DNA from: Acidobacteriota bacterium
GTDB taxonomy: Bacteria; Acidobacteriota; Vicinamibacteria; Vicinamibacterales; CAVVIG01
Reading direction: 5' to 3'
Assembly (NCBI GenBank): GCA_046734915.1
Contig: JBKPSC010000081.1
Span: 1 to 45,029 of the forward strand
Length of the DNA stretch: 45,029 nt
A program made the position numbers and the translations under genes. The notes beneath the pieces are model-generated. The model was not told where the DNA came from. It searched no databases and saw only the letters and a program-made list of their open reading frames with translations. Position 1 is the stretch's first letter; each line of letters opens with the position of its first letter. Positions 2,504 to 35,527 of this stretch are shown one piece after another.

Positions 2504-2523
2504 GCGATCAGATTGGAACGTTG

Positions 2524-3603: not shown

Positions 3604-3605
3604 TC

Positions 3606-3854: not shown

Positions 3855-6283
3855 CACCCATCCCTCAGGGCATCCGCCGGGTCGAGGCGCATCGCCCGTC
3901 GAGCCGGCAGGTAGCATGCGGCGACCGACACCGTCAGCAACAGCATAACGGCTGCAGCAAGCACGCCGGCATCGCGAGGCGTCACGCCCACGAGCTGACT
4001 GCGCAGCAGCTGCCCGAGCGCCAGCGCTCCCGCTCCGCCGAGCGCGATGCCGGCCCCGGCGCGCATTAACCCTTGAGATAACACCAGCGACAGAATCGCG
4101 CGCTGGTCGGCACCAAGCGCCTGCCGGATGCCCAGCTCGCGTCCGCGTTGCGCCACGCCAAACGCCAGGACGCCGTAGGTGCCGACGGCCGCCAGAACCA
4201 GCGCGATGAGGCCGAACGCCGCAAAGAGGACCATCGGGGCGCGTCGGGTTTCGAGCGATTGTGCCATCCAGTCGTCCATGGTGCGAACGTTCGCGATGGG
4301 CTGTTCGGGATCGAGTCGCTGGACGGCACTGCGAACTTGAGCGACGACGGTTTCCGGCTGTACAGCGGTCTTGAGCATCAGCGCCATCGTCGACCGCTGG
4401 ACCTGGGCGATGGGGTAGTAGAGGCGCTCCTTGGTGACGGGCTGACCCAGATCGATCGCGTTGATCGTGCCGACCACGCCGATGATTGTGATCGCTGGAC
4501 TCGTTGGCCCGCCGCGGCGAATCTGGTGTCCAATCGGATCGCTCGTCGGGAAGTAGCGCTTCACGAGGTACTCGTCGATGACAACGACCGGCGGACTGTC
4601 TGGACCGTCGCGCTCATCGAACGTCCGCCCCGCCACGAGGGGAATCTGCATCACCTTGAAGTAGTCGCCGCCGACGGCCTCCTGGCGTCCATGCGGCGCG
4701 GTCTCACCCGGTGCGGGCGTGTAGCCGAGGATCGAGTACGAGCCGGAGCTCACGTTCCCGCTCAGCGGAATGTTCGACGTCAGGCCGGCCGCAGTCACGC
4801 CGGAAATCCGCCGGGCGTCGTCAACCAGGCGGTTCCAGAATGCGGCGCGATCAGTCGGGGTCTGGTAGCGGACCTCGGGGAGCGTCAGGCTCGCGGTCAG
4901 CACGCGGACCGGCGAGAAGCCGGGATCCGTCGCACGCAGACCGGCAAAACTCTTGATCAGCAAGCCGGCGCCGACGAGCAGCGCGAGAGCAACGGCCGTC
5001 TCGGCGACGACCATCGCCGTGTGCGCCCGGGTTGATCGACGCCCGGCCGTTCCCGATTTGCCGCCGTCTTCTTTCAGGAACGCCGCGATGTCGCCGCGCA
5101 TGACGGCCAGAGCCGGGACGATGCCGAAGATGATGCCGGTAGCGAGCCCCAGCGCGATCGTGAAGAGCACCACCGGAGGATGGAGCGACGCGTCGACCGC
5201 TCCAGGAAGTTCGCGCGCCGTCAACGCGAGCAGCGCCCGGACCCCCGCCATACCGAGCGCCAGGCCGACAACCGCGCCGCCCACCGAGAGCACGAGGCTT
5301 TCAAGCAGCAGCAGCCGCGTCAACCGGCCGCTGCCAGCGCCGAGCGTGCTGCGGATGGCCAGCTCTCGCTGCCGGTCGGAGACGCGCATGAGCATCAGGT
5401 TGGCGACGTTCGCGCACGCGATCAGGAGCACCAGCAGCACGCCGGCTTGCAGCAGATAGAGGGGCTCCTGGACGTCGCCGACGAGCTGCTCGCGAATCGG
5501 CACGGCGTAGCCACCGAAGCCAGAGGCCTCGGAAAAGGCCCGCCGTTCGGGAAGGCGTTCGAGATTGCGGGCGACGATGGTCGCCATCTCGGCCTGAACT
5601 CCCGCGAGCGACGCGTGCGGTTTCAGCCGAGCAATCATCTGGCTGCTCTCGTTGCCACGCATGGCGTCCGACCGCTGCACCGGCGTGAAGGAGTACGGCA
5701 CGAGCAGCGCGATGTCTCGTGCCGGCAGCTCGAAATCTGCCGGCAGGATGCCGACGACCTGATACGGTTCGCCGCTCAGCCGGATCTCACGGCCGATGAC
5801 GGCCGGGTCAGCGCCAAAGCGTGAGCGCCACAGCGACGCCGTCAGGATCGCGAACTTGTCCGCGTCGGGCTGCGCATCTGCCTCGCCGAACGCCCGGCCC
5901 CGTTCTGGCTCGCGGTGAAACGTCGTGAAGAACGACGGCGTGACGGCCAGCGCGCGCAGCTGTTCCGGCCGGCCCTCGGACGCGAGGTTGAGACTCCGCA
6001 TCGTGACCAGCGTAGCGTCTTCGATCGACGGCGCCTGTGTCAGGCGATCGAGGTAGTCCGGAATGGAGACGGCGGCTTGCGGCAGGCCCATCCGCGGGTA
6101 GGTGTTCCAGATGAACACCAGACGGTCCGTGTCGGGGTACGGCAGCGGCCGCAGCAGCACCTGGTAGAAGAGGCTGAAGATTGCCGTGTTGCCGCCAATG
6201 CCGATGCCGAGCGTCAGCAGCGCGACGAGCGTGAATATCGGCTGCCGGCGAAAACTGCGGATGGCGAAACGGAGATCCTGCAT
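3854..6283 (-). CDS. ADOP-family ABC transporter permease (MacB-like periplasmic core + FtsX), without prefix domain
   Basis: 809 aa. Starts MQDLRFAIRSFRRQPIFTLVALLTLGIGIG. Contains the FtsX-type motifs LLIACANVANLMLMR and ...GVAQRGRELGIRQALGA. GGAGGG lies upstream of ATG 6283. Confidence 0.9.
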   Translation of the reverse strand: MQDLRFAIRSFRRQPIFTLVALLTLGIGIGGNTAIFSLFYQVLLRPLPYPDTDRLVFIWNTYPRMGLPQAAVSIPDYLDRLTQAPSIEDATLVTMRSLNLASEGRPEQLRALAVTPSFFTTFHREPERGRAFGEADAQPDADKFAILTASLWRSRFGADPAVIGREIRLSGEPYQVVGILPADFELPARDIALLVPYSFTPVQRSDAMRGNESSQMIARLKPHASLAGVQAEMATIVARNLERLPERRAFSEASGFGGYAVPIREQLVGDVQEPLYLLQAGVLLVLLIACANVANLMLMRVSDRQRELAIRSTLGAGSGRLTRLLLLESLVLSVGGAVVGLALGMAGVRALLALTARELPGAVDASLHPPVVLFTIALGLATGIIFGIVPALAVMRGDIAAFLKEDGGKSGTAGRRSTRAHTAMVVAETAVALALLVGAGLLIKSFAGLRATDPGFSPVRVLTASLTLPEVRYQTPTDRAAFWNRLVDDARRISGVTAAGLTSNIPLSGNVSSGSYSILGYTPAPGETAPHGRQEAVGGDYFKVMQIPLVAGRTFDERDGPDSPPVVVIDEYLVKRYFPTSDPIGHQIRRGGPTSPAITIIGVVGTINAIDLGQPVTKERLYYPIAQVQRSTMALMLKTAVQPETVVAQVRSAVQRLDPEQPIANVRTMDDWMAQSLETRRAPMVLFAAFGLIALVLAAVGTYGVLAFGVAQRGRELGIRQALGADQRAILSLVLSQGLMRAGAGIALGGAGALALGQLLRSQLVGVTPRDAGVLAAAVMLLLTVSVAACYLPARRAMRLDPADALRDG

Positions 6284-7251: not shown

Positions 7252-8178
7252 TTACGCGATCGCACCCTTATACAGCGCGAGCAACTTGCTCCACGCTTTA
7301 TCCGCATCGGGCTGGTTGTAGATCGGCGCGCCGGGCGGCGCGGGCATGTCTGACATACACCAGCCGTGCTGCGAGTTGGGATACACCTCGACTTCGGCGG
7401 GAACGTTCGCCGACTGGAAAGCGGCTCTCAGCTTGTCCTTGGCGTCCGGCTGTCGCTGATCGTCGTTTGCTGCGACCGCGAAGTACATCCGCGCGCGGAT
7501 CTTCGGTGCGAGCAGATGCGGACTGTCGGGATTGTCGGTCACGAGACCGCCGCCATGGAATGACGCGCCCGCCCCGATCCGCGCGGGAACGGCCGCGGAC
7601 GTTCGCACGACCAGCGGACCGCCCATGCAGTAACCCTGGGTCCCGACCTTCTTGGCAGTGTTTACTTGTCGCTGCGCGTCGAGGAAGGCGACGAACGCGA
7701 CCGCGTCGCGCTCCGCCGCGCCGGCGGCGCCGATCGATCCCATGAGCGGCGTCAACTTGGCGCGATCGGCCTGGTTCGAGAAGTTGAAGTTCGCCGTGTC
7801 GATGCCCGGGTCGCGTGTGATGCGATAGTAAGGATTCGGCACGAGCACGGTGTAGCCTTCCGCCGCGAGACGCTTGCCCATCTCGCGGAGCGCCGGACGC
7901 AGTCCGAAGGCGTCGGCCCAGATGATCACCGCCGGGTGCGAGCCGCTGGTGGGGTAGATGAACGCGGCGTTGCAGGTGCCATCCGGCGTCTTGACGTCGA
8001 CGTTGTTCTCGACAACGGGCAGGTCAGCGGCGGTCGCGGGCGCTGCCGCCGCGAGCCCTGCCGCGATGGACATCGCGACGAAGTCGCGACGGGTCAAGTC
8101 ACGGGCCGATTCCTCTTTCTGATCCTGGTCGTTCTGGTCGCGCGGTTCATCCATGGCGTGGTCCCCCCGGTTCTTCAC
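7252..8178 (-). CDS. Dienelactone hydrolase family protein with twin-arginine leader
   Basis: LTRRDFVAMSIAAGLAAAAPATA is a Tat leader. GYCMGG is the nucleophile elbow and ...HGW lies near the C-terminus. GTG at 8178 overlaps the upstream stop (GTGA). An alternative ATG is at 8154. Confidence 0.8.
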   Translation of the reverse strand: MKNRGDHAMDEPRDQNDQDQKEESARDLTRRDFVAMSIAAGLAAAAPATAADLPVVENNVDVKTPDGTCNAAFIYPTSGSHPAVIIWADAFGLRPALREMGKRLAAEGYTVLVPNPYYRITRDPGIDTANFNFSNQADRAKLTPLMGSIGAAGAAERDAVAFVAFLDAQRQVNTAKKVGTQGYCMGGPLVVRTSAAVPARIGAGASFHGGGLVTDNPDSPHLLAPKIRARMYFAVAANDDQRQPDAKDKLRAAFQSANVPAEVEVYPNSQHGWCMSDMPAPPGAPIYNQPDADKAWSKLLALYKGAIA

Positions 8179-11345: not shown

Positions 11346-12758
11346 CTAACTCTGAGGAACGCTGATGCCTTTCGGATCGGGGGCCGCGACGGACACGCCT
11401 ATGAAGACCGCGGTTGCGGCGGCGAGGGCAGGAATCCATGACGTGTCTTCGAACCCGCGGACGAAGGAGAGCCCGAAGTTCAGCGGAAAGCCAACGAGAA
11501 TGCTGGCCATCGCGGCCGCGCTAGTGGCGCGTTTCCAATAAAGCCCGCCGATCACCGCCGGCAGCAGGATGCCTGAACCCCACAGTGCCGTCTGGATCAG
11601 GCTGATGATCTGCGGCTGCCAATAGGCGATGACGAGCCCGGCCGCCCCCACGACCCACGTCAACCGTCGGGTCGCCTGTAGAAGGTTTGGGATCCCCTCC
11701 AGATCATCATGATCGGTGTAAAGAATCTCCGTCAGCAGCACCGCCACTGCGACCATGAGCATGGTGTTGGCCGTCGACATGATTGCGGCGAACAGGCCCA
11801 CGATCGCCAGACCGACGAGGCCCGACGGCAGTGACGTCTGAATCAGCCGATAGAGGACGTGATTCGACGGCGTGTCGGCCGGCAACGAGGCCGCTGCCAC
11901 CAGGCCGAGGACGACCGTCCCGGCAAAGAACAGCGCGTTGAGCACGCCCGAAAGGAGGAACGCCCGCTGTGCCGCCGGTGTGTCGATTGCAGCGTCAACG
12001 CGCTGCCAGTTCTCCATGGCCGGGAGGCCCAGCAACGCCCCGGTGCCGATCCCGAGCCACACGAAGGTCGGACCCGCGAACGTGTAGGGATTCGTGAGCG
12101 AGTCCCACCGACCTTGTGCCTGCAGCGCCTGAACGATGCCGCCGAACCCGCCGCTCCGGTAGACCTCGATGACGACGCCGGCGACGATCGTCACGACCAT
12201 CGCCCAGAAGTGCATGACGTCGGTGTACATGTCGCTGCGAATCCCCGCTCCGGCGGTCATCCAGATCACGAGCACTGCGGCGACGAGGCCGGCGAGACGC
12301 GCATCCCATCCGCCCCACACTTCGAGGATGCCGCCGAGTGCCTTGAACTGAGCAGCGAGATAGAAGAAATACAGAAAGGCGATCGCCGCGCCCACGGCGA
12401 TAGCCACGCTCCGCGAATAGCGACGGCGGAAGAACTCGGAGAACGACGATCGATCGCCTGACGGCGCAATTGATCGCACCCGGGCGGTGATGGCGGCCAT
12501 GACCGCGAACCCAATCATGACGCCCACGCCGTAGGTCAGGCCCAGGCCTATGCCCGAGTGCATGGTCGCTCCCGCGGTGCCAACGATGGTGCCGGCGCCG
12601 ACGTTGGTCGACACGACGGTGAACACCAGGAAGCCGAGACCGATGCTGTTCTTGGAGGTCAGCCAACCGGAGAGGTCCACGCGGCCGGCCCAGTACCGGT
12701 TGACGACCACGACACCCAGCAGATACGCGGCGATGACCGTTACGTCGAGCAGCGTCAC
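11346..12758 (-). CDS. Sodium:solute symporter (SSS) family transporter
   Basis: GTG at 12758. 470 aa and polytopic. AGAGIRSDMYTDVMHF resembles the SSS signature region. It lies 9 nt downstream of the ABC permease gene. Confidence 0.8.
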   Translation of the reverse strand: MTLLDVTVIAAYLLGVVVVNRYWAGRVDLSGWLTSKNSIGLGFLVFTVVSTNVGAGTIVGTAGATMHSGIGLGLTYGVGVMIGFAVMAAITARVRSIAPSGDRSSFSEFFRRRYSRSVAIAVGAAIAFLYFFYLAAQFKALGGILEVWGGWDARLAGLVAAVLVIWMTAGAGIRSDMYTDVMHFWAMVVTIVAGVVIEVYRSGGFGGIVQALQAQGRWDSLTNPYTFAGPTFVWLGIGTGALLGLPAMENWQRVDAAIDTPAAQRAFLLSGVLNALFFAGTVVLGLVAAASLPADTPSNHVLYRLIQTSLPSGLVGLAIVGLFAAIMSTANTMLMVAVAVLLTEILYTDHDDLEGIPNLLQATRRLTWVVGAAGLVIAYWQPQIISLIQTALWGSGILLPAVIGGLYWKRATSAAAMASILVGFPLNFGLSFVRGFEDTSWIPALAAATAVFIGVSVAAPDPKGISVPQS

Positions 12759-12767
12759 GTGGATCCT

Positions 12768-14327
12768 TTACTGAGTCCGCTCACTTACCTGCGGGAGATC
12801 GGGCACGTTCGCGTTCAGGAAGTCTCGCGCCGCGGCCGCCGGATCTTTCTCGCGCCCATCGACTGCCGCGTTCATCGCCTGCATGTCTCGGGCGGAGATG
12901 CGGCCAGCCAGTTTGAGGATGGCTTCTCGAACCTCCGGGTAACGCAACAGCGTATCGCTGCGGGCGACAGGAACCGCATCGTACGGAGGAAAGTAGAGCC
13001 GATTGTCGTCGAGTTGAACGAGGTCGAGGCTGTGAATCAGGCCAGCCGTGGCATCGCCGGCGATCAAGTCCACCTGGCCCGAAGCCAGAGCGCGGTAGGT
13101 GAGCGTCAGATCCATCGCGCGGGGCGGCTCGGCGAAACGGAGCCCGTAGGTGCGGGCGAGCCCGTCATAACCGTCCGGCCGCTGAAGGAACTCGTAGCCG
13201 AATCCGGCATGCCAGCGCGGTGCCTCGCGCGCCGCGTCCTCGATGGTGCGCAGGTTTCGCGCGCGGGCATCCTGGCCGCGGACGAGGATCGCGAAGGAGT
13301 TGTTGAATCCGAGCGCCGGTAAGAGCGATCGGCTGGTCCGCGCGTATTCGTCACGGACCGTATCGAGCGCCTGCTTCGGGTCCGTGACGACGGGCTTGCC
13401 GAAGATGGCGGTGAGCGCCGTGCCGGTGTACTCCACATAGACATCGATATCGCCCGTGGCCAGTGCCCGATCGCAGATGAGTGTCCCGCCGAGGTTCAGG
13501 CGCCGGTCGACGATAAAGCCTGTAGAACGCTCGATGGTTTGTGCCAGGAGCTCACCAAGGATGATCTGTTCGGTCGTGTTCTTCGAGCCAACGGTGATTC
13601 TCGAACCGGAACGAATCGCAAAGACCCCGCCGCCGAGGAGCGCGGTGATGAGCAGCGCGGCCACCAGGGCGGGAACGAACCGGGATCGCGCCTGACGGCG
13701 CGGCGCGAGCCACCGCCCGACCCACCACAGACCGCCGTCCACGGCGAGCGCCAGACACGAGGCTGGGATCGCACCGGCGAGGATGACGGTGGAATCGACC
13801 ATCGACAGACCGCGATAGATGAACTCGCCGAGCCCGCCGGCGCCAATTGCGGCGGCAATCGTCGCCGAGCCGACTCCGGTGACGGCCGCAACGCGAATCC
13901 CGGCGACGATCGACGGCATGGCGAGCGGCAGGTCGATGTCGCGCAGCAGCTCGTAAGAGCTCATTCCCATCGCCGTGGCCGCTTCGCGCACCGAAGCGTC
14001 GATGCCGGCGAAGCCTGCGATCGTCGTGCGCACGATCGGCAGCAGGCCGTAAAGGATGAGCGCGGTGACCGCCGCCTTGGCGCCGACACCGCCGACGAGC
14101 GGCAGCGGCAGCAGGAAGCCGAACATCGCCAGGCTGGGAACAGTCTGGAACACGCTGGCGATCGACACGAGCGGTGCGCTGATGCGCGGCCGTCTGGCGG
14201 CGAGAATACCAATCGAGACGCCGACGATGGTGGCCGCGGCCGTGGCGGCCGCGACCAGCAGCACGTGTACGATCAGGGCCTGCCCGACCTCGAACCGGTG
14301 CGCTGCCCAGAACCTGATGACCGACAT
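12768..14327 (-). CDS. Osmoprotectant (glycine betaine/choline type) ABC transporter, fused permease + substrate-binding protein
   Basis: The N-terminal half has a BPD-type permease EAA region (ASVREAATAMGMSSYELLRDIDLPLAMP). The C-terminal half, ITVGSKNTTEQIILGELLAQ...DIDVYVEYTGTAL, is typical of OpuBC/OpuCC/YehZ binding proteins. Confidence 0.85.
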   Translation of the reverse strand: MSVIRFWAAHRFEVGQALIVHVLLVAAATAAATIVGVSIGILAARRPRISAPLVSIASVFQTVPSLAMFGFLLPLPLVGGVGAKAAVTALILYGLLPIVRTTIAGFAGIDASVREAATAMGMSSYELLRDIDLPLAMPSIVAGIRVAAVTGVGSATIAAAIGAGGLGEFIYRGLSMVDSTVILAGAIPASCLALAVDGGLWWVGRWLAPRRQARSRFVPALVAALLITALLGGGVFAIRSGSRITVGSKNTTEQIILGELLAQTIERSTGFIVDRRLNLGGTLICDRALATGDIDVYVEYTGTALTAIFGKPVVTDPKQALDTVRDEYARTSRSLLPALGFNNSFAILVRGQDARARNLRTIEDAAREAPRWHAGFGYEFLQRPDGYDGLARTYGLRFAEPPRAMDLTLTYRALASGQVDLIAGDATAGLIHSLDLVQLDDNRLYFPPYDAVPVARSDTLLRYPEVREAILKLAGRISARDMQAMNAAVDGREKDPAAAARDFLNANVPDLPQVSERTQ

Positions 14328-14328
14328 G

Positions 14329-15087
14329 TCAGTGGATGAGCGGCCCTGGCGAGCTCACACGATGCAAGCTCTTGAGCAGGCGGCGTACGTCCTCCGAGGC
14401 GTCGTCGAGAATGCGTTCCGGTGGTCCGAAAGCCACTGCCCGTCCCGCCTCGAGCACAGCCATCTGGTCGGCAAACGCCGCCGCCTCGGGGATATCGTGC
14501 GACACGAGGATGATCGTCTTGCGGAGCCGCCGCTGAATGTTCCGCAGCTCGTCCTGGAGCTCGGCGCGCGTCAGCGGATCGAGCGCGCCGAATGGCTCGT
14601 CCATCAGGAGGATCGGCGGATCGACCGCCAGCGCTCTGGCGATGCCGACGCGTTGACGCTGTCCGCCCGAGAGCTCATGAGGCCAGCGGTCGCCGAAGCG
14701 GCCGCGCGAAAGTCCGATCAGATCGAACAGCTCATCTACACGTGCGTCGACGCGCGCCCGTTCCCAACCTTCCAGACGTGGCACTGTCGCCATGTTGTCC
14801 GCCACCGTGCGATGGGGAAAGAGTCCACCTTCCTGGATGACGTAGCCAGCGGATCGACGAAGCCGTATCAGATCCCATTCGCGGACATCGCGGCCGCCGA
14901 CGAGCACCGAGCCAGACACCGCGTCGAGCAGACGATTGACCAACTTCAGCGCCGTGGTCTTCCCGGCGCCGCTTCGGCCGACCAGCGCGAGACACTGGCC
15001 AGCGGCGACGGCGATTGTCAGGCCGTCGAGGACGGGCGTCTTGCCATCTCGGGTGTAGGAAACCCCGCGGAACTCGATTGAGGCCAT
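14329..15087 (-). CDS. ABC transporter ATP-binding protein (osmoprotectant system)
   Basis: Walker A GRSGAGKTT, signature LSGGQRQRVGIARAL, Walker B ILLMDEP. The stop lies 1 nt before the permease ATG. ATG at 15087 is preferred over TTG at 15099. Confidence 0.9.
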   Translation of the reverse strand: MASIEFRGVSYTRDGKTPVLDGLTIAVAAGQCLALVGRSGAGKTTALKLVNRLLDAVSGSVLVGGRDVREWDLIRLRRSAGYVIQEGGLFPHRTVADNMATVPRLEGWERARVDARVDELFDLIGLSRGRFGDRWPHELSGGQRQRVGIARALAVDPPILLMDEPFGALDPLTRAELQDELRNIQRRLRKTIILVSHDIPEAAAFADQMAVLEAGRAVAFGPPERILDDASEDVRRLLKSLHRVSSPGPLIH

Positions 15088-15171
15088 CAGCTCTCGCAAG
15101 ACTAGCCCAGCGCGGCCGTGTTGTCTCGCGTAGCATTGGTGAGACGACCGCGTCGCGTGTGAGGCCGCGCC

Positions 15172-16851
15172 ATGCCCGAGACCAACCCTGTGCTACCGCC
15201 GGTGACTCCGTCACACACGGCGCTGATGTTCCCGACGTTAACGCCGGCACAAGTCGCGCGAATCGCCGGGCACGGACGGGAACGGCGGATCGGGCAGGGC
15301 GAAATTCTCGTTGACGCCGGCGATCCGGTCGTGCCGTTTTTCGTTGTGACGGCAGGGCAACTCGAGGTGATCCGCCCGGGTGCATCCCTCGAGACGATGG
15401 TCGCCGTGCACGGACCCGGGCAGTTCACCGGCGAAGTCAACATGCTGCTCGGCCGGCGGGCTTTGATGCGCACCCGCGTGAGCCAGGACGGCACGGTGGT
15501 GGAGTTGCCGCGCGAGCGGCTGCTCGGCCTGATTCAAACGGACACGGAAATCAGCGAGATCCTGATGCGCGCCTTCATCTACCGGCGCATCGAGCTCATC
15601 GCCCACGGGATCGGCGACGTCGTCCTCGTCGGTTCGATGCATTCGGCCGCGACGCTCAGGGTCAAGGAGTTTCTGACCAGGAACGGTCATCCGTTCGCCT
15701 ACATCGATCTCGATCGCGACGCTGACGTCCAGGCCCTGCTCGATCGATTTCAGATCGCCGCCGCCGAGGTGCCGGTGCTCATCTGCGGCGACAGCATGGT
15801 GCTGCGCAACCCGACGAACGAAAACATCGCCGAATGCCTCGGGTTCAATGCGTCAGTCGACCGCACGCACGTCCGCGATGTGCTGGTGATCGGCGCCGGA
15901 CCGTCAGGACTGGCGGCGGCGGTCTACGCCGCGTCCGAGGGTCTGGACGTTCTCGTGCTCGAGTCGAACGCACCCGGAGGGCAGGCTGGTGCGAGCTCGC
16001 GAATCGAGAACTATCTCGGGTTCCCCACGGGCGTTTCGGGCCAGGACCTCGCCGGGCGTGCGTTGACGCAGGCGCAGAAATTCGGCGCCGAGATCATGGT
16101 TGCCGCGGGGGCGACCGCACTTGCCTGCGATCGGAAGCCGTACCGCGTGCGCGTCGGCGACGGACAGTCGATTCCGGCACGGACGGTCGTAATCGCGACG
16201 GGCGCCGAATACCGCCGGCCGGCGATCGACGACCTGGCGAGGTTCGAGGGAGCCGGCGTGTACTACGGCGCGACGTTTCTCGAAGCCCAGTTGTGCAGCG
16301 GTGAGGACGTGATCATCGTCGGAGGCGGGAACTCGGCCGGACAAGCCGCGGTCTTCCTGTCTCAGACCGCCCGTCACGTTCACATACTGGTGAGGTCGGC
16401 GGGCCTGGCTGAGAGCATGTCGCGATATCTCATCCGGAGAATCGAGGAAAGCCCGGCGATCGAGTTGAAGACGTGCACCGAGATTATCCGCCTCGACGGC
16501 GAGGTCCATCTGGAGCGGGTGACGTGGCGTGACAATCGGACCGGCACCGTCGACGCCCGTGACGTCCGCCACGTCTTCATGATGACGGGCGCCGTGCCGA
16601 ACACCTCGTGGGTCCGTGACTGCCTCGCGCTCGACGCCAATGGATTCGTCAAGACCGGATTCGACCTCACGCGAGACGAACTGACGCGCGCGCACTGGCC
16701 GCTGATTCGGCCGCCTCACCTCCTCGAAACGAGCCTGCCTGGCGTGTTTGCGGTCGGGGACGTGAGGGGCGGCAACGTGAAGCGCGTCGCATCAGCGGTC
16801 GGTGAAGGCTCGATCGCGATTTCGTTCGTGCATCGCGTGCTGACGGAGTAA
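15172..16851 (+). CDS. Cyclic-nucleotide-binding domain / glutaredoxin-like domain / thioredoxin-reductase-like FAD oxidoreductase fusion
   Basis: The N-terminal domain is CNB-like (GQFTGEVNMLLGRRALMRT). VLVIGAGPSGLAAA and VIIVGGGNSAGQAA are GxGxxG motifs. GVFAVGDV is present near the C-terminus. The TrxR CATC position reads ATFL. Confidence 0.85.
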   Translation: MPETNPVLPPVTPSHTALMFPTLTPAQVARIAGHGRERRIGQGEILVDAGDPVVPFFVVTAGQLEVIRPGASLETMVAVHGPGQFTGEVNMLLGRRALMRTRVSQDGTVVELPRERLLGLIQTDTEISEILMRAFIYRRIELIAHGIGDVVLVGSMHSAATLRVKEFLTRNGHPFAYIDLDRDADVQALLDRFQIAAAEVPVLICGDSMVLRNPTNENIAECLGFNASVDRTHVRDVLVIGAGPSGLAAAVYAASEGLDVLVLESNAPGGQAGASSRIENYLGFPTGVSGQDLAGRALTQAQKFGAEIMVAAGATALACDRKPYRVRVGDGQSIPARTVVIATGAEYRRPAIDDLARFEGAGVYYGATFLEAQLCSGEDVIIVGGGNSAGQAAVFLSQTARHVHILVRSAGLAESMSRYLIRRIEESPAIELKTCTEIIRLDGEVHLERVTWRDNRTGTVDARDVRHVFMMTGAVPNTSWVRDCLALDANGFVKTGFDLTRDELTRAHWPLIRPPHLLETSLPGVFAVGDVRGGNVKRVASAVGEGSIAISFVHRVLTE

Positions 16852-16853
16852 CC

Positions 16854-17132
16854 ATGAAGACCACGACGCCAACGAACTGCAAACACATCGCGGCGCTGCC
16901 GGCGGTCAAGCCACCGCATCAGCACGTCTGCGACGAGTGCATCAAGATTCACGCCCGATGGGTCCATCTCCGGACGTGCCAGGAATGTGGCGCCACGCTC
17001 TGCTGCGACAGCTCACCCAATCGGCACGCGTCGAAGCACGCGCGAGCGAGCGGGCACCCGGTGATTGCGTCGGCAGAGCCCGGCGAACGCTGGGTCTTCT
17101 GCTTCTCCGACGACGAGTTCGCGGAATACTGA
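16854..17132 (+). CDS. UBP-type zinc-finger domain protein
   Basis: 92 aa. The Cys/His pattern is CKH...CDEC...HLRTCQECGATLCCDSSPNRHASKHARASGH. It starts 2 nt after the previous stop. Confidence 0.8.
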   Translation: MKTTTPTNCKHIAALPAVKPPHQHVCDECIKIHARWVHLRTCQECGATLCCDSSPNRHASKHARASGHPVIASAEPGERWVFCFSDDEFAEY

Positions 17133-17153
17133 CATCACTGAAGGCAGGTTGCC

Positions 17154-18677
17154 ATGAGTGACGCGGATGCGGCGAAGGTGGATTTGTCCAAAGGCGTCGA
17201 TGTGTCGTCGCTGCACGACGGCGGATCCATGCTCGGTCGTGTCGGGGAGGACGAGGTCGTGATCGCGCGATCGGGCGACGAGATCTTCGCCGTCGGCGCG
17301 CACTGCACGCATTATCACGGCCCGCTTGCCGACGGGCTGATCGTGGGAGACACGGTGCGGTGCCCGTGGCATCACGCCTGCTTCAGCCTTCGCACCGGCG
17401 AGGCGCTGCGCGCGCCGGCGCTCGATCCGGTCGCCTGCTGGCGCGTCGAACGTCAGGGGTCGAAGGTGTTCGTTCGACAGAAACAACCGGATGTGGTCCG
17501 GCCGGCCACCCGTGCGACGGCCGACGCCCCATCGTCGGTCGTCATCGTCGGCGGAGGCGGCGCCGGGGCGGCGGCGGCGGAGATGCTGCGGCGCGAGGGC
17601 TATGACGGTCCAATCACGATGATCAGCGCCGACGCCGACCCGCCGAGCGATCGACCCAACCTGTCCAAGGATTATCTCGCTGGTACGGCGCAGGATGACT
17701 GGATTCCGCTCAGGCCGGCTGAGTTCTACACCGAGAATCGCATCGAGCTCCTGCTCCAATCACCGGTGGCGAGCATCGATCTGGCAGCGCGCCAGGTGGT
17801 GCTTGGCGATGGCACGCGCCGGCCGTTCGGCGCACTGCTCCTGGCGACCGGCGCCGATCCCGTTCGCCTGCCAATCCCTGGCGCGGACGCGCCGCACGTT
17901 CACTACTTGCGGTCGTTCGGCGACAGCCGCGCGATTGTCAAAGCCGCGGGCTCCGCCTCGCGAGCGGTCGTCGTCGGCGGGAGCTTCATCGGTCTCGAGG
18001 TCGCCGCGTCGCTGCGAGCCCGCAACATCCCGGTGGACGTCGTGGCGCCGGAGCACGTGCCGCTCGAACGCATCATGGGCCTCGAGGTCGGCCGCTTCAT
18101 CCAGAGTCTTCACGAAAGCCGCGGCGTTGTCTTCCATCTTGGCGAGACGGTGACGAACATCGACAGGCGGTCCGTGAAACTGAGCGGCGGGCAGACACTG
18201 GATGCCGACGTCGTCGTCATGGGGGTGGGCGTCCGTCCGGCGACGACGCTCGCCGAGCGGGCCGGTCTCACCGTCGATCGTGGCATCCTCGTCAACGAGT
18301 GGCTCGAGACGAGTGCGCCGGGAATCTATGCGGCCGGCGACGTCGCGCGCTATCCGGACGCCCGCTCCGGCGAGCGGATCCGAATCGAGCACTGGGTGGT
18401 GGCGGAACGACAGGGACAAACCGCCGCGCGCAACATGCTCGGCCGGCGAGAGCGGTTCGACGCGGTCCCCTTCTTCTGGAGCCAGCACTATGACGTCACG
18501 ATCAACTACGTCGGGCACGCCGAACGCTGGGATGCGACCACGATGAGCGGTTCGCTCGAAGATCGCGACTGCTCGATCCGATTCTTGAACGGCGGTCGGC
18601 AGTCAGCCGTCGTGACCGTCTTCCGCGATCGCGAAAGCCTCGAAGCCGAAGTCGCGATGGAACGTGAAACTCCGTAG
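17154..18677 (+). CDS. Rieske [2Fe-2S] domain fused to FAD/NAD(P)-dependent pyridine-nucleotide-disulfide-family reductase (AIF/ferredoxin-reductase-like)
   Basis: CTHYHG...CPWHHACF is the Rieske motif. VVIVGGGGAGAAAA and VVVGGSFIGLEVAA are dinucleotide folds. GIYAAGDV is present. Confidence 0.9.
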   Translation: MSDADAAKVDLSKGVDVSSLHDGGSMLGRVGEDEVVIARSGDEIFAVGAHCTHYHGPLADGLIVGDTVRCPWHHACFSLRTGEALRAPALDPVACWRVERQGSKVFVRQKQPDVVRPATRATADAPSSVVIVGGGGAGAAAAEMLRREGYDGPITMISADADPPSDRPNLSKDYLAGTAQDDWIPLRPAEFYTENRIELLLQSPVASIDLAARQVVLGDGTRRPFGALLLATGADPVRLPIPGADAPHVHYLRSFGDSRAIVKAAGSASRAVVVGGSFIGLEVAASLRARNIPVDVVAPEHVPLERIMGLEVGRFIQSLHESRGVVFHLGETVTNIDRRSVKLSGGQTLDADVVVMGVGVRPATTLAERAGLTVDRGILVNEWLETSAPGIYAAGDVARYPDARSGERIRIEHWVVAERQGQTAARNMLGRRERFDAVPFFWSQHYDVTINYVGHAERWDATTMSGSLEDRDCSIRFLNGGRQSAVVTVFRDRESLEAEVAMERETP

Positions 18678-18692
18678 CGGCGACGGCGGAGC

Positions 18693-19958
18693 TCAGCGCG
18701 GCTTCCGGCGATCGGGGTCCAGATCGGGCAGGAAGGCCGCCAGCAGTCCGATCGCCGGCAGGAACGCACACAGTCCGTAGACCGCCTCGATGCCAATCCG
18801 GTCAGCGAGCTCTCCGAGGGCGGCCGCGCCCAAGCCGCCCATCCCGAACGCGAACCCAAAGAACACGCCCGAGATCAGGCCGACCCGTCCCGGAACGAGT
18901 TCCTGCGCATAGACGACGATGGCCGAGAAGGCGGAGGCGAGGATCAGTCCGATGACCGCCGCCAGGACCGCGGTCCAGAAGAGATTCGCGTGCGGCAGCA
19001 GCAGCGAGAAGGGCAGGACGCCGAGAATCGATCCCCAGATGACCGGCTTTCTGCCGATGCGATCGCCAATGGGTCCGCCGAGAATGGTGCCCGCCGCGAC
19101 TGCCGCGAGGAACAGGAAGAGGTGCAGCTGGGCGCGTTGAACGGAAACGTCGAATTTTTCGATCAGGTAGAACGTGAAATAGCTGCTCAGGCTCGCCAGG
19201 TAGAAGTACTTCGAGAAGATGAGCGCGGCGAGAATCGAAATCGACCAGAAGACGCGCCGCGTCGACACTGGTAACGGACGGGCGCCGACGGCCTTCGCCG
19301 CGTGCTGCCGGAGATGCAAGGCGTGCGTGGCGTACCACCTTCCGATGCGGACGGCCAGCACCATGCCTGCCACCGCGACAAGCGAACACCACACGAGACT
19401 CGACTGGCCGAATGGTGCAACGAGAAACGCGGCCAGCACCGGACCAAGCGACGATCCGATGTTTCCACCGACCTGAAAGACGGACTGGGCAAGGCCGTGG
19501 CGTCCGCCCGACGCCATCCGCGCCACGCGCGACGATTCGGGATGAAAGACCGACGAGCCCACTCCGACGAGGCCGGCGGCCAGCAGGAGCAACGGGTAGG
19601 TCCACGCTATCGACAGCAGCAGCAGGCCCGCGAGCGAGAACCCCATTCCCACGACCAGCGCATAAGGAGCCGGCCGCCGGTCGGTGAGGAATCCAACGAC
19701 CGGCTGCAGCAGTGATGCGGTGAGCATGAGCGCCAGGGTCATGTAGCCGATCTGAGAAAAGCTCAGCGCAAAGGACGCTTTCAGCAGCGGATAGATTGCC
19801 GGGAGCAGCGACTGGATGGTGTCGTTGAGCAGGTGAGACACGCTCACCGCCGCGAGGACCGCGACCGCCGTCGATTCGCGCGATGGGCGGTCGTCGACTG
19901 GTGCGACCGTGGAAACGGTGGCTGCTGCGGGCGAAGTGGACATGACGTGCGTGCCCAT
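18693..19958 (-). CDS. MFS transporter (Fsr-like)
   Basis: 421 aa and polytopic. HLLNDTIQSLLPAIYPLL plus the FHPESSR region resemble the FSR subfamily of MFS. Confidence 0.8.
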   Translation of the reverse strand: MGTHVMSTSPAAATVSTVAPVDDRPSRESTAVAVLAAVSVSHLLNDTIQSLLPAIYPLLKASFALSFSQIGYMTLALMLTASLLQPVVGFLTDRRPAPYALVVGMGFSLAGLLLLSIAWTYPLLLLAAGLVGVGSSVFHPESSRVARMASGGRHGLAQSVFQVGGNIGSSLGPVLAAFLVAPFGQSSLVWCSLVAVAGMVLAVRIGRWYATHALHLRQHAAKAVGARPLPVSTRRVFWSISILAALIFSKYFYLASLSSYFTFYLIEKFDVSVQRAQLHLFLFLAAVAAGTILGGPIGDRIGRKPVIWGSILGVLPFSLLLPHANLFWTAVLAAVIGLILASAFSAIVVYAQELVPGRVGLISGVFFGFAFGMGGLGAAALGELADRIGIEAVYGLCAFLPAIGLLAAFLPDLDPDRRKPR

Positions 19959-20011
19959 TGTACTAACCAGCGTCGTTCTGCCGGTGCATGGCCGGCTTGT
20001 GCAGGGGCTTC

Positions 20012-21124
20012 CTAGCTTGTCTGCGGTTTCGCCGCGCCAACACCCAGGAACAGGCGCATGCGGTCGAGCTCGGAATCGAGCTCTCGGACAAACGCGGGAT
20101 CGTTTGGCAGGTGGTCGACGTAGTTGATGTCGGAATGGAGCCGGCCTTCACGCACTGATACATTGGCCCAACCGATCACCCGGTCGCACCAGAGCAGCGG
20201 CAGTGCGTAGTAGCCGAATTGTCTCTTCGGCGCCGGTGTGTACGCTTCGAACCGATAGGTCCATCCCCACAGAAGCTGAAACCGCCGCCGATCCCAGACG
20301 ACCGGATCGAACGGCGCGAGCAGCCGAACCACTCGTTCTACGCGCCGCGGCACCGAATCGTCTTGCGGCCAATACCAGTCGACGCCCTCGAAGCGCGCAT
20401 GCGCGAGCCGGCGCTTCGCTCGTGCGAGCGCCAACCTGAGGTGCGCCGTCCACTGCGGCGTCGCGTAGCGCAGGCGGTTCACCAGCCAGGCGAGCGTGCC
20501 CTGAGGCAGCGGCGCATACACTCCCACGACGACGTCAATGAGCGCGTCGAGGCGCGATTCGCGCTCGCGGGTGCCGGAAGCGGCTGGCCCGTGGTCGATG
20601 GGGCCATAGAGCCGGACGCCGGCGTCACGCCATACGACCCGTAGCAGTCCGCGGTAATGCATGTCTTCGAGCAGGTGCGTCGTCGCGCTCGACGATCCGC
20701 CCCAGTAGTTGGTGACGGTCCCGTGGGCGAAGTGCGCATCGACGTCGCGAGGGTGGACAGTGCCTTTCTCGCGCACGAAGGTCAGCAGCTCGTCGGTTCG
20801 CCGCCGTTGCGCCGCTGACCGCGAGACCCCGCGTGAACGCGGGTGCATGAGCTTCTGGACGCGATGGCTGACGAAGCCGTAGTTGACGAGGACATCTTCT
20901 TCGACGTCGAGCGTGCGATAGCGGCGCTCGAGATCGCCGGCCCGATACCCCCTGACGCGGTGACGGAGGACGAGGTCCTGGGCCCGCGCCGGCGCGCGAA
21001 TCGGATCGGCCTGGACGAAGCCCAGGCGATGGAGCGCCCGTCCGAGCGTCGTCGGACGGAAGAGGCTGCGCGCCACGGCGTGGCGACGCAAGCGGTCGAG
21101 GGTCAACGTCGGACCGGGGCTCAC
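20012..21124 (-). CDS. Winged-helix DNA glycosylase-like protein, YcaQ/AlkZ (DUF1006) family
   Basis: Contains GFVQADPI, NYWGGSS and FGYYALPLLW, which are family-typical. The longest ORF reaches 21199 but then overlaps the divergent gene. GTG at 21124 gives an N-terminus VSPGPTLTLDRLRRHAV. Confidence 0.75.
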   Translation of the reverse strand: MSPGPTLTLDRLRRHAVARSLFRPTTLGRALHRLGFVQADPIRAPARAQDLVLRHRVRGYRAGDLERRYRTLDVEEDVLVNYGFVSHRVQKLMHPRSRGVSRSAAQRRRTDELLTFVREKGTVHPRDVDAHFAHGTVTNYWGGSSSATTHLLEDMHYRGLLRVVWRDAGVRLYGPIDHGPAASGTRERESRLDALIDVVVGVYAPLPQGTLAWLVNRLRYATPQWTAHLRLALARAKRRLAHARFEGVDWYWPQDDSVPRRVERVVRLLAPFDPVVWDRRRFQLLWGWTYRFEAYTPAPKRQFGYYALPLLWCDRVIGWANVSVREGRLHSDINYVDHLPNDPAFVRELDSELDRMRLFLGVGAAKPQTS

Positions 21125-21188
21125 GCTACAATCGTCCGGTATGGCCGTTCGCTCGACGTCGCGGCTGTCATTCCTCCCCGGGTCCTCG

Positions 21189-21518
21189 ATGCTTCGCACG
21201 CTCGCGGCACACGTGCGCCTGACGCTCCGGTTGCTGCGCGAGCCGGCGGTGCCACTGCTGACGAAAGTCCTGCCCGTGGCCGCCGCACTTTATCTCATCT
21301 CGCCGCTCGACTTCGTGCCTGACGTCCTGCCAATCCTCGGACAGCTCGACGATGCCGGCGTGATGCTGCTCGCCCTCGAGTCCTTCCTCAAGCTCTGTCC
21401 GGACGCGGTCGTCGCTTATCACCGCGAGGCCATGACGGCGGGTCGGCCCTATTCGGCGATGCCGGCGAGCGGCATGGTGATCGACGCTGAGTTCCGGCGG
21501 CACGACGACGTTTCGTAG
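21189..21518 (+). CDS. DUF1232 (YkvA-like) membrane protein
   Basis: ATG at 21189. LYLISPLDFVPDVLPILGQLDDAGV is the DUF1232 core motif. Confidence 0.75.
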   Translation: MLRTLAAHVRLTLRLLREPAVPLLTKVLPVAAALYLISPLDFVPDVLPILGQLDDAGVMLLALESFLKLCPDAVVAYHREAMTAGRPYSAMPASGMVIDAEFRRHDDVS

Positions 21519-21528
21519 ACCGTCGCGC

Positions 21529-22218
21529 CTACCACGACGCGCGGAACGCCACGCCGGGTCGAATGCTGAGACCGTTGTCGAAACCGATGGCCCTGACCTG
21601 GGGTACGACGGAAAACCGCCGGCCCAGCGCGATGTCGACATCCAATCCTGCTTCCGCGGTCACGCCGTAGCTCGTGGCGTCGGTCTCGAGCGTTCGAACA
21701 GGCACCGTCAAGCCGATCGCGAGCAGGTCAGCCGCCGGCAGGAACACCGGAAACTGACTCATCGACTTGAAGTGCATCTGGCTGAAGACGAACGCCGCGC
21801 CGCCAAGATATCCGAGCTGAATGCCGTGCCGCCGTTCCGTGTGATATCCGATGAGCGCGCTGGCGGTCCGCAGCCGCTCGGACGCTTCGACGGTCTCCGT
21901 GTAGGTCAAGGTTTGATTGGCTGCAATCCTGATGACGTCGCTGGACTGATTCGAGTAGCTGACCGAGTCTGGCAGCGACACTTCGAGCCGAACCGTCACG
22001 TGCGGCGTGAGCCACGTACCCACGCCGAAGCCGCCGCCGGCCACCGTGCCGTTCAAGTCCAGGGGCCCTGGAGCGGCGCTGTCAGACTCGACGATCTCGG
22101 TGTGCGTTCTCCGTTCGATGCCGGCAAATGCGGTCCCTTCCACGAATACTGACTGCGCTGCGGCGGGCGCCGTGCAGACGCTCAGACCGAGTGCAAATGC
22201 TGCCAGCAATCTGTTCAT
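21529..22218 (-). CDS. Outer-membrane beta-barrel protein (OmpA-beta/OmpW-like)
   Basis: Signal peptide MNRLLAAFALGLSVCTAPAAAQ. Alternating beta-strand pattern and C-terminal aromatic ...VAFRASW. Confidence 0.65.
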   Translation of the reverse strand: MNRLLAAFALGLSVCTAPAAAQSVFVEGTAFAGIERRTHTEIVESDSAAPGPLDLNGTVAGGGFGVGTWLTPHVTVRLEVSLPDSVSYSNQSSDVIRIAANQTLTYTETVEASERLRTASALIGYHTERRHGIQLGYLGGAAFVFSQMHFKSMSQFPVFLPAADLLAIGLTVPVRTLETDATSYGVTAEAGLDVDIALGRRFSVVPQVRAIGFDNGLSIRPGVAFRASW

Positions 22219-22259
22219 AGCGAGCTACTTTAGTCGACGTCTGGCGGGAAGGGGAAGGA

Positions 22260-22691
22260 CTACGCGCGTTCTTGTGCGCGCACGAGCAGGACTGGAATCT
22301 TGACGAGATGACGGAGGCGATCGACGGTCGTGCCCTTGACGACGTCAGCCAGGAAGCGGTGCCCGTGAGTGGCCATGGCGATGAGGTCCGAGCTTTCGGC
22401 GCTGGCGACGCGGACTAATTCCGTCGCCGGATCGCCCTTGGCGAGCAGGGTGCGAACCGAGAAGCCTTCACCGCGCAGCGTGACCTCGAGCCTGGCCAGG
22501 TACTCGCGGTCGTCGCGCATCTCTTCCGACTCGCGCAGCTGCAGATCGTCGAAGTGCCGCGCCGCCCATCCGTCCGCAACGTGCACGAGAAGCAGCTCGC
22601 CGCCAGTCAGACGCGCGAGATCGCGAACGTGCTTCAAGATTGTGCCGTCCGCGTCCGAATTTTCTATGGCGACCAAGATGCGTTTGTACAT
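22260..22691 (-). CDS. Universal stress protein (UspA family)
   Basis: ATG at 22691 gives MYKRILVAIENSD.... Also LLLVHV and ...IAMATHGH...GTTVDRLRHLVKIPVLLV. The longer ORF would overlap the end of mntH. Confidence 0.85.
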   Translation of the reverse strand: MYKRILVAIENSDADGTILKHVRDLARLTGGELLLVHVADGWAARHFDDLQLRESEEMRDDREYLARLEVTLRGEGFSVRTLLAKGDPATELVRVASAESSDLIAMATHGHRFLADVVKGTTVDRLRHLVKIPVLLVRAQERA

Positions 22692-22723
22692 TCGGACCGG
22701 GCTCGGTGGCTCAGTATATCCAG

Positions 22724-24082
22724 CTACGCGACCAAGTCGGCGATGGTCTGGTAGAGCAGCCACGCGTTCAGCGCGGCGATGACGATGGCCACTGACCAGG
22801 CCAGCAGCTTGACCCAGCCTGGGTTGCTGAACTCGCCCATCTTGGCCTTCTCGCTCGTGAACTGCACGAGCGGGAATACCGCGAACGGAAGCTGAAGGCT
22901 CAGGATCACCTGGCTGAGGATGAGCAGCGGGCCGGTCCCACTTTCGCCGTACAACGAAATCACGATGATCGCCGGGACGATGGCGATGAGACGGGTGATC
23001 AGGCGACGCAGCCAGGGCCGCAGGCGCAGACTGATGAAGCCCTCCATCACAATCTGGCCGGCGAGCGTGCCGGTCAAGGTTGCGTTCTGTCCCGAGAACA
23101 GCAGCGCGAGCGCGAAGACCGTACTCGCCATCGTCGTGCCGAGGAGCGGCGAGAGCAGTTTATAGGCGTCGCCGATGTCAGCGACGTCTTCATATTGCGT
23201 TCCGTGAAACGTCGCGGCGGCCATGACCAGGATGGCGCCGTTGATGAACAGCGCCGACATGAGCGCCACCGACGAATCAATGGTGGAGAAGCGAATCGCC
23301 TCTCGCTTGCTCTCCACATCGTCTCGATACTTCCGCGTCTGCACGATCGACGAGTGCAGGTAGAGGTTGTGCGGCATCACGGTCGCGCCGAGGATGCCGA
23401 TGGCGATGTAGAGCATCTCATGATTGCGGAGGATGTCGGCCTGGGGGATGAACCCGTGCACGACTCCGATCGGATCGGGCCGCGACAGCCAGATCTCAAT
23501 CGCGAACGACCCCGCGATGAGGAGGATGAGCGTGACTACGAGCGCTTCGACGTACCGGAACCCCCGGTTCTGGAGATACAAGACGATCAGTACGTCGAGC
23601 GCGGTGAGACAAACGCCCCAGATGAGCGGCAGACCCACGAGCAGGTTGAGCGCGATGGCGGCGCCGAGCACTTCGGCGAGGTCGCAGGCGGCGATGGCGA
23701 TTTCACACAGGATCCACAAGGCTAACGTCGTGGCCCGGGAGTAGTGGTCGCGGCAGGCCTGCGCGAGATCGCGGCCGCTGGCGATGCCGAGTCTCGCGGC
23801 CAGCGCCTGCAGCAGGATCGCCATCAGATTGGAAATCATGATGACGCTGAGGAGCGTGTAACCGAAGCGGGCGCCGCCAGCGATGTCGGTGGCCCAGTTG
23901 CCCGGGTCCATGTAGCCGACGGCGACGAGATAGCCTGGGCCGGCGAAGGCGAGGAGCTTTCTCCAGAATCCGGCCGAATGGGGGATCTCGACCGAGCCGT
24001 GAACTTCCGGCAGGCTGACCTCGCTCGCGGGCAGCCGCCAGCCTCGCTCAACGGTCTCGCCGTTTCTGGTGCTCGCATCCAT
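22724..24082 (-). CDS. mntH: Nramp-family divalent metal (Mn2+/Fe2+) transporter
   Basis: [20 protein letters not shown] is the Nramp signature. 452 aa and polytopic. Confidence 0.92.
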
Positions 24083-33522: not shown

Positions 33523-33547
33523 CTCGGACGCTGGGGACAGGCCGTCG

Positions 33548-35517: not shown

Positions 35518-35527
35518 GGATCCGCTT

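Follow-up and report, generated by a model that had tools for sequence, protein, structure and literature searches.

A CxxC-less, thioredoxin-reductase-like flavoprotein and its recurrent UBP-type zinc-finger neighbour in an Acidobacteriota genome

The stretch of DNA analysed here, referred to throughout as the window, comprises 45,029 nucleotides of an Acidobacteriota bacterium of the order Vicinamibacterales (CAVVIG01; assembly GCA_046734915.1, contig JBKPSC010000081.1). Within it, three consecutive genes encode a multidomain flavoprotein (gene 1), a UBP-type zinc finger (zf-UBP, gene 2) and a Rieske-reductase fusion (gene 3) (Table 1). A first-pass annotation, made from the sequence alone, read the three as a second-messenger-gated redox module. 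Its gene coordinates and spacing are exact and all of its domain assignments are right, with Pfam matches above the cut-offs for cNMP_binding and Pyr_redox_2 in gene 1, zf-UBP in gene 2, and Rieske, Pyr_redox_2 and Reductase_C in gene 3. The three-gene module itself does not survive comparison with other genomes. Genes 1 and 2 are a conserved two-gene unit that recurs across phyla, and gene 3 was seen beside them only in the window and one near-identical strain.

Genes 1 and 2 are separated by 2 nt and genes 2 and 3 by 21 nt, all on the plus strand. Ribosome-binding sites precede gene 2 (GGAG at 16845-16848, 5 nt ahead of the ATG) and gene 3 (GAAGG at 17140-17144, 9 nt ahead of the ATG), and no convincing internal terminator was found between genes 1 and 3. 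Given the tight spacing, the ribosome-binding sites and the lack of a credible terminator, the three genes are likely co-transcribed in the source organism. A scan of positions 14900-19000 returned no sigma-70-like promoter, a result that is uninformative for a high-GC organism.

Table 1. Genes, domains and motif positions at the locus, in window coordinates.
Feature	Position	Strand	Description
Gene 1	15172-16851	+	559 aa: sensor domain, glutaredoxin-like domain, CxxC-less TrxR-like flavoprotein
cNMP_binding (CNB) domain	15283-15543	+	gene-1 residues 38-124; Pfam 1.1e-11, 44.9 bits (cut-off 27.5)
Glutaredoxin-fold domain	15565-15867	+	gene-1 residues 132-232; no active-site cysteine
S158-A-A-T161, glutaredoxin CxxC position	15643-15654	+	profile alignment to cGrx1 7c10/7c12
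Low-molecular-weight thioredoxin reductase (TrxR) fold	15877-16848	+	gene-1 residues 236-559; FAD and NAD(P)H motifs intact
G366-A-T-F-L370, TrxR CATC position	16267-16281	+	alignment to D. radiodurans TrxR
Gene 2	16854-17132	+	92 aa, single-domain UBP-type zinc finger (zf-UBP)
Gene 3	17154-18677	+	507 aa, Rieske [2Fe-2S], FAD/NAD(P)H ferredoxin reductase and Reductase_C
Quaternary-amine ABC transporter	12768-15099	-	divergent from gene 1; context only, membership not shown
Fused permease and OpuAC binding domain	12768-14327	-	Pfam
ABC transporter ATPase	14329-15099	-	Pfam

Neighbourhood conservation was assessed from both ends of the putative operon. Using the full-length family alignment as query and one genome per species, we found gene-1 relatives in at least 594 species and kept the best 80; with four further contigs this gave 84 loci, each checked within 8 kb. 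From the other side, we inspected the loci of the 80 closest metagenomic relatives of gene 3 (60-74% identity). No gene-3 homologue occurs within 8 kb of gene 1 in any of the 84 loci, and gene 1 is beside gene 3 in none of the 80. The neighbours of gene 3 show no conservation across its own loci, one of which (L088) has a zf-UBP gene directly upstream, with gene 1 absent. Beyond the window, L181, a near-identical strain (97-100% identity), was the only locus at which the triad turned up. A conserved three-gene operon is thus rejected by the censuses from both sides.

What does recur is a pair, gene 1 and zf-UBP: among the neighbours of gene 1, zf-UBP alone is both specific and recurrent. Of the 80 species loci, 19 have a zf-UBP gene no more than ~4 kb from gene 1, and in 14 the distance is at most 300 nt; zf-UBP is mostly immediately downstream and sometimes upstream. 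Among the 40 best records from plasmids or chromids, at least 12 also carry the pair (from Gemmatirosa, Rhodococcus and Rhizobium, with both gene orders represented); in the Phyllobacterium record, zf-UBP is ~0.9 kb from gene 1 on the opposite strand. Carriers include Acidobacteriota, Gemmatirosa, Rhodococcus/Nocardia and Rhizobium. In Gemmatirosa kalamazoonensis the two genes have the same order as in the window, with 64% and 68% identity, and in Rhizobium leguminosarum the pair adjoins hut genes. In Rhodococcus and Nocardia plasmids, zf-UBP and gene 1 overlap in the order dnaK-grpE-dnaJ-cbpM-clpB-trxA-zfUBP-gene1-DUF1931, and in two Rhodococcus plasmids (L175 and L179) they stand at the tail end of this chaperone operon; L175 also carries Hsp20 near it. 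Looking outward from zf-UBP, a gene-1 relative is adjacent in 3 of 7 look-ups, DUF5996 in 3 and PspC in 1. Large kinase genes near gene 1 at 13 loci were dismissed as an artefact of shared kinase/HATPase domains, with no single orthologous partner among them. The neighbourhood conservation proposed by the first-pass annotation as a check therefore fails for the triad and holds for the pair.

Gene 3 is a self-contained fusion of a Rieske ferredoxin and a ferredoxin reductase with its own variable neighbourhoods. Pfam matches above the cut-offs place Rieske at residues 18-96, Pyr_redox_2 at 128-421 and Reductase_C at 440-504, and the sequence itself shows the Rieske ligands C51-x-H53 and C70-x-x-H73, bearing out the fusion that had been proposed. 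In NCBIfam it is HcaD/AndAa-like (2.8e-81) with an HcaC/AndAb-like N-terminus, all below the equivalog cut-offs, and in the PDB it matches 3lxd (5.4e-60) and putidaredoxin reductase 1q1r (6.7e-59). It merges in one chain the putidaredoxin/rubredoxin/ferredoxin reductases and the Rieske ferredoxins of ring-hydroxylating oxygenases (1q1r, 3lxd, HcaD/HcaC), and is comparable in this respect to eukaryotic AIFM3-type Rieske-reductase fusions, with all Rieske ligands and Reductase_C present. Unlike ring-hydroxylating oxygenase systems, however, it has no oxygenase or P450 partner in the window.

Do the three proteins nonetheless constitute one electron-transfer chain? Such a chain would be cNMP-gated and would lead from NAD(P)H to the FAD and Rieske centre of gene 3 and/or the FAD of gene 1; zf-UBP would be the metalloprotein that bridges them. 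The co-directional genes, their short spacers with ribosome-binding sites and the missing terminator are consistent with it, as is the zf-UBP gene that immediately precedes a gene-3 homologue in L088. Genes for small Rieske ferredoxins (with CTH...CPWH and CPLH) likewise come just before gene-1 homologues in L014 (~500-832) and L018 (~7650-7993), and zf-UBP again falls between two flavoproteins in L183. Yet the triad is absent from all of the gene-1 and gene-3 loci surveyed, gene 3 brings its own reductase and ferredoxin and needs no donor, and the zf-UBP homologues are, judged by their family, zinc proteins. We consider a three-protein chain rather unlikely. The third gene of L183, entertained as a possible gene-3 homologue, proved to be a gene-1 paralogue, and the gene-1 homologues beside the small Rieske ferredoxins have C375 replaced and read GGANSA in place of GGGNSA.

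The proteins belong to known superfamilies and to a family that is already annotated but uncharacterised. Among the gene-1 matches listed are 120 homologues with 69-86% identity, 541-577 aa long and of the same architecture. The best 80 species loci include Acidobacteriota, Gemmatimonadota, Verrucomicrobiota, Nitrospirota, Rokubacteria, Myxococcota, Planctomycetota, Actinomycetota, Alpha-, Beta- and Gammaproteobacteria, and archaea of the Nitrososphaeraceae; cultured carriers include Rhodococcus, Rhizobium leguminosarum, Gemmatirosa and Cupriavidus metallidurans. RefSeq names the family 'FAD-dependent oxidoreductase' or 'cyclic nucleotide-binding domain-containing thioredoxin-disulfide reductase'. 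The architecture is thus known to databases, and the second name is probably wrong. It is probably misleading: no examined member has the cysteines that define that activity. As the first-pass annotation supposed, no characterised function came to light, and a full-text literature search found nothing on the gene-1 fusion, its zf-UBP pairing or a link to ergothioneine genes.

The middle domain of gene 1 has a glutaredoxin fold. When 42 diverse family members were scanned, 32 matched Pfam Glutaredoxin (PF00462); the gene-1 segment scores 20.1 bits, just below the cut-off of 22.9. The family profile matches mycoredoxin 2lqo (3.7e-5) and glutaredoxins (1e-3) in the PDB. An AlphaFold2 (AF2) model of the domain has a mean predicted local distance difference test score (pLDDT) of 80.7 and the canonical glutaredoxin order of elements (beta-alpha-beta-alpha-beta-beta-alpha), and superimposes on clostridial Grx1 (cGrx1) with template-modelling (TM) scores of 0.88-0.92 and root-mean-square deviations of 1.3-1.6 A. 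The fold proposed from the sequence alone is therefore right, with a correction of register: SMHS (residues 155-158) had been placed at the CxxC position, which falls three residues downstream, at S158-A-A-T161. The profile alignment pairs 'TCPHC/S' of cGrx1 with 'HSaet' of the family, and the window protein has neither a CxxC nor a CxxS glutaredoxin active site. Position 158 is Ser in 183 of 270 relatives and Cys in 62, which makes the latter monothiol-like (CxxT). The surrounding motif, G154-S155-x-H157-[S/C]158-x-x-T161-L-R163, is strongly conserved, and the equivalent of the cis-proline, P201, is invariant in the family. Because of this conservation, the motif looks like a functional site rather than the product of decay.

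The N-terminal CNB (cyclic-nucleotide-binding) domain has as its closest solved structure the CNB domain of a diguanylate cyclase (5h5o, 3.4e-8). Its phosphate-binding cassette retains Gly-Glu (G87 in 98% and E88 in 94% of the family), and arginines 95, 96, 100 and 102 are conserved in 61-88%, none of them at the canonical spacing; in the alignment to 5h5o, its R-S-A lands on L98-M99-R100 of gene 1. Cyclic-nucleotide binding is plausible from these residues, and 'second-messenger-gated', as the module had been described, overstates what the cassette supports.

Variation within the family bears on this input domain. In L183, gene 1 is followed by zf-UBP and then by the gene-1 paralogue mentioned above (2310-6176 for the whole arrangement). 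The paralogue has 566 aa, is 45% identical to gene 1 over the last 360 residues and has no CxxC, and its N-terminal 190 aa are unrelated to gene 1. The first 233 aa gave zero Pfam matches even at E = 10; the protein starts 'VLLAIDDDP', receiver-like in look. A natural gene-1 variant in two independent samples (L165:2837-3990 and L166:909-2062), located between egtD and zf-UBP, has residues 60-234 (the CNB and Grx-like domains) deleted and the frame changed. Considering the unrelated N-terminus of the paralogue and these natural deletions, we infer that the input domain of gene 1 is exchangeable.

The C-terminal body of gene 1 has the two-domain FAD/NADPH fold of low-molecular-weight thioredoxin reductases (TrxB, TIGR01292; 2q7v, 1tde, 1f6m). 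Pyr_redox_2 covers residues 236-546 (120.5 bits), the best PDB matches of the last 325 residues are all TrxRs (up to 2.6e-38), and the TrxB motifs GxGxxG, GGQ, GGGNSA and GD are all in place. Gene 1 differs from TrxB in its two extra N-terminal domains, in the missing CATC disulfide, in a TIGR01292 score of 204.5 bits, far below the cut-off of 343.45, and in the NADPH 2'-phosphate region, where HRR is V-R408-S. The Deinococcus radiodurans TrxR segment 'GKGVSTCAT-CDG' aligns with 'GAGVYYGATFLEA' of gene 1, which places CATC at G366-A-T-(F)-L370; without the gap, the aligned residues are ATFL, as first read. No cysteine occurs at residues 366-370 in 135-140 relatives. The consensus of this segment is Y364-Y365-[S/G]-A-T-F-[M/V/L]-E371-x-Q-L-C375, conserved in 92-98% except at 366 and 370, and by this measure it is under strong selection. 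E371 occupies the position of TrxR Asp139, the acid catalyst of the E. coli enzyme.

At the cofactor sites, GAGPSGLAAAVYAA, GGQ, GGGNSAGQAA, R408 and GDVR are invariant or nearly so in the family, and even relatives of 39-50% identity keep the FAD and NAD(P)H motifs unchanged, which argues for a working flavoenzyme and not a decayed one. The full-length AF2 model (pLDDT 77.6) resembles TrxRs in the flavin-reducing (FR) conformation, with Foldseek TM-scores of 0.77-0.84 (0.78-0.83 for 1f6m and 5mh4), more than those in the flavin-oxidizing (FO) conformation (~0.6). The longest Foldseek alignment, of 398-441 columns, is to AhpF. AhpF and thioredoxin-glutathione reductase share with gene 1 a thioredoxin- or glutaredoxin-fold domain N-terminal to a TrxR-type reductase, and Foldseek also matched the Grx-like model to the Grx domain of human TrxR3. 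In contrast to AhpF, which has two thioredoxin folds with a CxxC, gene 1 lacks cysteines at both redox centres and has the additional CNB domain.

Is gene 1 a true thioredoxin reductase, as one PGAP name has it, with a non-canonical cysteine pair? Its best sequence and structure matches are TrxRs, E371 stands at the Asp139 position, and trxA is immediately upstream of zfUBP-gene 1 in Rhodococcus. Five cysteines outside the classical sites (C205, C222, C319, C375 and C484) are each conserved in 87-98% of the family. However, a CxxC at the TrxR site is found in none of the family members examined, the TIGR01292 score falls well short, and by alignment the conserved cysteines appear to be at scattered positions of the fold. 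We judge a true TrxR very improbable. The possibility that the redox cysteines had simply been misaligned can be set aside, with no CxxC in either redox module of any relative examined. The claim that the protein cannot do classical dithiol chemistry accordingly holds for the classical sites and goes too far for the protein as a whole, given the five other cysteines.

TrxR-fold enzymes without a redox disulfide offer another comparison. TrxR-type ferredoxin-NADP+ reductases (FNRs; YumC 3lzw, 3ab1) and the bacillithiol-disulfide reductase YpdA/Bdr (TIGR04018) lack the disulfide, as gene 1 does, and adjacent genes for small metalloproteins are a feature common to gene 1 and these enzymes. The 'G-x-G-V-Y-Y' stretch of gene 1 resembles that of TrxR-type FNRs. 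Similarity to this group is much weaker, at 1e-12 to 1e-14 against 1e-38 for TrxR; the match to TIGR04018 is 8.3e-17. The C-terminal extension of YumC, which covers the flavin, is missing: the 3lzw alignment stops at YumC residue 307 of 332 but at residue 550 of 559 in gene 1, where 9 residues are left. Neither YumC-type FNR nor YpdA/Bdr has sensor or Grx domains, unlike gene 1.

Gene 2 matches Pfam zf-UBP (PF02148) at 1.4e-10 (41.7 bits, cut-off 22.7) and, over residues 8-88, RPA1320 of Rhodopseudomonas palustris (PDB 2ida; 2.1e-23). The two have the same Cys/His pattern, including the CC-D motif, and RPA1320, like gene 2, is a zinc finger without an assigned function, its structure having come from structural genomics. 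At least 7,999 homologues of gene 2 were scored. In a HMMER alignment with USP5 whose E-value is only 0.008, 'CGRRYF' is paired with 'CGATLC' of gene 2, Arg becomes Ala47, Trp is kept (W36) and Tyr-x-Tyr becomes Phe-x-Phe. The arginine aligned with Ala47 is the one that binds the ubiquitin C-terminus in the eukaryotic zf-UBP domains of USP5 (Arg221) and HDAC6. In USP5, Arg221 and aromatic residues form the pocket for a free C-terminal Gly-Gly.

On Deinococcus ficus pDFI2 (L178:3216-5252), an annotated cation:proton antiporter carries a zf-UBP domain at its C-terminus, a fusion that suggests a regulatory or adaptor role for zf-UBP. A probable cation:proton antiporter, called by its N-terminal sequence only, is also beside gene 1 in L080, where zf-UBP is ~3 kb away. 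DUF5996 is a second recurrent zf-UBP neighbour (L172, L173, L182, L184-L186, L088 and L032) and overlaps the zf-UBP gene in L184-L186.

A regulatory zinc finger would also suit a catalytically silent gene 1. As a pseudo-TrxR, the protein would sense redox state or nucleotides, its flavin/NAD(P)H state and N-terminal ligand controlling a partner via zf-UBP. The catalytic cysteines are gone from both redox domains, the input domains are of signalling type (CNB here, another domain in the L183 paralogue), and zf-UBP as the cytosolic tail of an antiporter would fit a regulatory role. Against this, the protein has no recognisable output domain, and conservation of the cofactor motifs as strong as that observed is equally expected for an enzyme. 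A silent sensor seems to us distinctly unlikely.

Ergothioneine genes provide a functional lead. In five different gene orders, all of them in Acidobacteriota, egtB and egtD are immediate neighbours of gene 1, of zf-UBP or of both. Gene 1 is followed by egtB and egtD in L015 and L027; egtB-egtD is divergent from gene 1-zfUBP in L034 and L036; egtB and egtD precede the gene-1 derivative without CNB and Grx domains, and then zfUBP, in L165 and L166; and gene 1 is divergent from zfUBP-DinB-egtB-egtD in L167-169. By comparison, egtB occurs in none of the 80 gene-3 loci. It is very unlikely that adjacency in several independent arrangements arose by chance.

Gene 1 may accordingly be considered as a low-molecular-weight-thiol reductase tied to ergothioneine, with zf-UBP as helper, by analogy with the CxxC-less YpdA/Bdr. 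It might, for example, reduce ergothioneine disulfide or a biosynthetic sulfenic intermediate, or keep the EgtB iron reduced. The pair would then be a missing, ligand-gated enzymatic partner of ergothioneine metabolism that recycles oxidised ergothioneine or completes or supports its biosynthesis. Such a role would explain both the wiring to egtB-egtD in several independent Acidobacteriota gene orders and the presence of the family in ergothioneine-producing lineages. Besides the egt adjacency, it is favoured by the TIGR04018 match, by C375, present in 98% of the family, and by the occurrence of the family in known ergothioneine producers or egtBD carriers (actinomycetes, Acidobacteriota and Nitrososphaeraceae; for egtBD in ammonia-oxidising archaea see PMC7554672). 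However, the link is seen in only 4 of the 80 gene-1 species loci, C375 is lost in the Rieske-linked subgroup, and the literature search found no bacterial precedent for such a reductase. Nor does the divergent ABC transporter of the window help, as it cannot be called ergothioneine-specific. We regard an ergothioneine reductase as unlikely, and the wider notion of a missing partner in ergothioneine metabolism as doubtful to the same degree.

The transporter was itself weighed as an ergothioneine importer and rejected. Its architecture is EgtUV-like, but its binding domain is nearer to OpuBC-derived binders (6e-56) and OpuCC (1.7e-46) than to Helicobacter pylori EgtU (6.6e-39) and Streptococcus pneumoniae EgtUC (1.8e-33). 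The fused transporter of L165 has the opposite domain order to that of the window, and its permease is only 46% identical. The ATPase gene has the same divergent position in L180, a relative with 86% identity.

The reading we lean towards, with modest confidence, is that gene 1 is a signal-gated NAD(P)H flavoenzyme that works with zf-UBP in thiol or oxidative-stress metabolism, and that gene 3 is a co-transcribed passenger. Gene 1 would be an active NAD(P)H-dependent enzyme whose flavin may hand reducing equivalents directly to an external acceptor, as in TrxR-type FNRs and YpdA/Bdr. The N-terminal input domain would gate this activity, and zf-UBP would be a dedicated partner of gene 1, serving as adaptor, regulator or acceptor. 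A role of the pair in thiol or oxidative-stress homeostasis is suggested by the egtB-egtD adjacency together with the Rhodococcus plasmid context, in which zfUBP and gene 1 follow chaperone genes and trxA. Gene 3 would be co-transcribed in the source lineage without being an obligatory member, a view that rests on its absence from all gene-1 loci, the absence of gene 1 from all gene-3 loci, and its own non-conserved neighbours.

Several observations weigh against this signal-gated flavoenzyme with a zinc-finger partner. The phosphate-binding cassette of the CNB domain is non-canonical, with no Arg-[Ser/Thr]-Ala at the usual spacing, and the full-length AF2 model is of moderate confidence only, the Grx-like region reaching a pLDDT of 51-65 in that context. 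The partnership is perhaps facultative, as roughly three in four gene-1 loci lack a zf-UBP in their vicinity, and the pairing of zf-UBP with DUF5996 and its antiporter fusion in Deinococcus ficus mean that it may be a general regulatory module and not a dedicated partner. The ergothioneine link is confined to Acidobacteriota and to a few percent of loci, and the window itself has neither egtB nor egtD. Finally, close spacing and the missing terminator make joint expression of all three genes probable in the window, and a local functional tie may exist.

Whatever the role of gene 1, its family is large and uncharacterised, extending from Acidobacteriota and Actinomycetota to Pseudomonadota and soil Thaumarchaeota. 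It offers a clean experimental target: a predicted flavoenzyme whose signal-input domain can be swapped and whose zinc-finger partner is conserved, and for which cultured carriers exist. The pairing may give a first functional handle on bacterial zf-UBP proteins, whose representative 2IDA was solved and never assigned a role. Should the ergothioneine link be true, it would bear on how cells handle oxidised ergothioneine.

Upstream on the minus strand (11346-15099) are a sodium:solute symporter, the fused permease/OpuAC binding protein and the ABC ATPase divergent from gene 1. Downstream (18693-24082) are a convergent MFS transporter, an AlkZ-like DNA glycosylase, a DUF1232 protein, an outer-membrane beta-barrel protein and an Nramp metal transporter, with no evident connection to genes 1-3. 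The region looks like ordinary chromosome, to judge by the housekeeping cluster uppS-cdsA-dxr-rseP (32731-36850) and by the MacB/FtsX permeases and sigma-54 activator encoded at other places in the window, and the best homologues point to an Acidobacteriota (Vicinamibacteria-like) organism.

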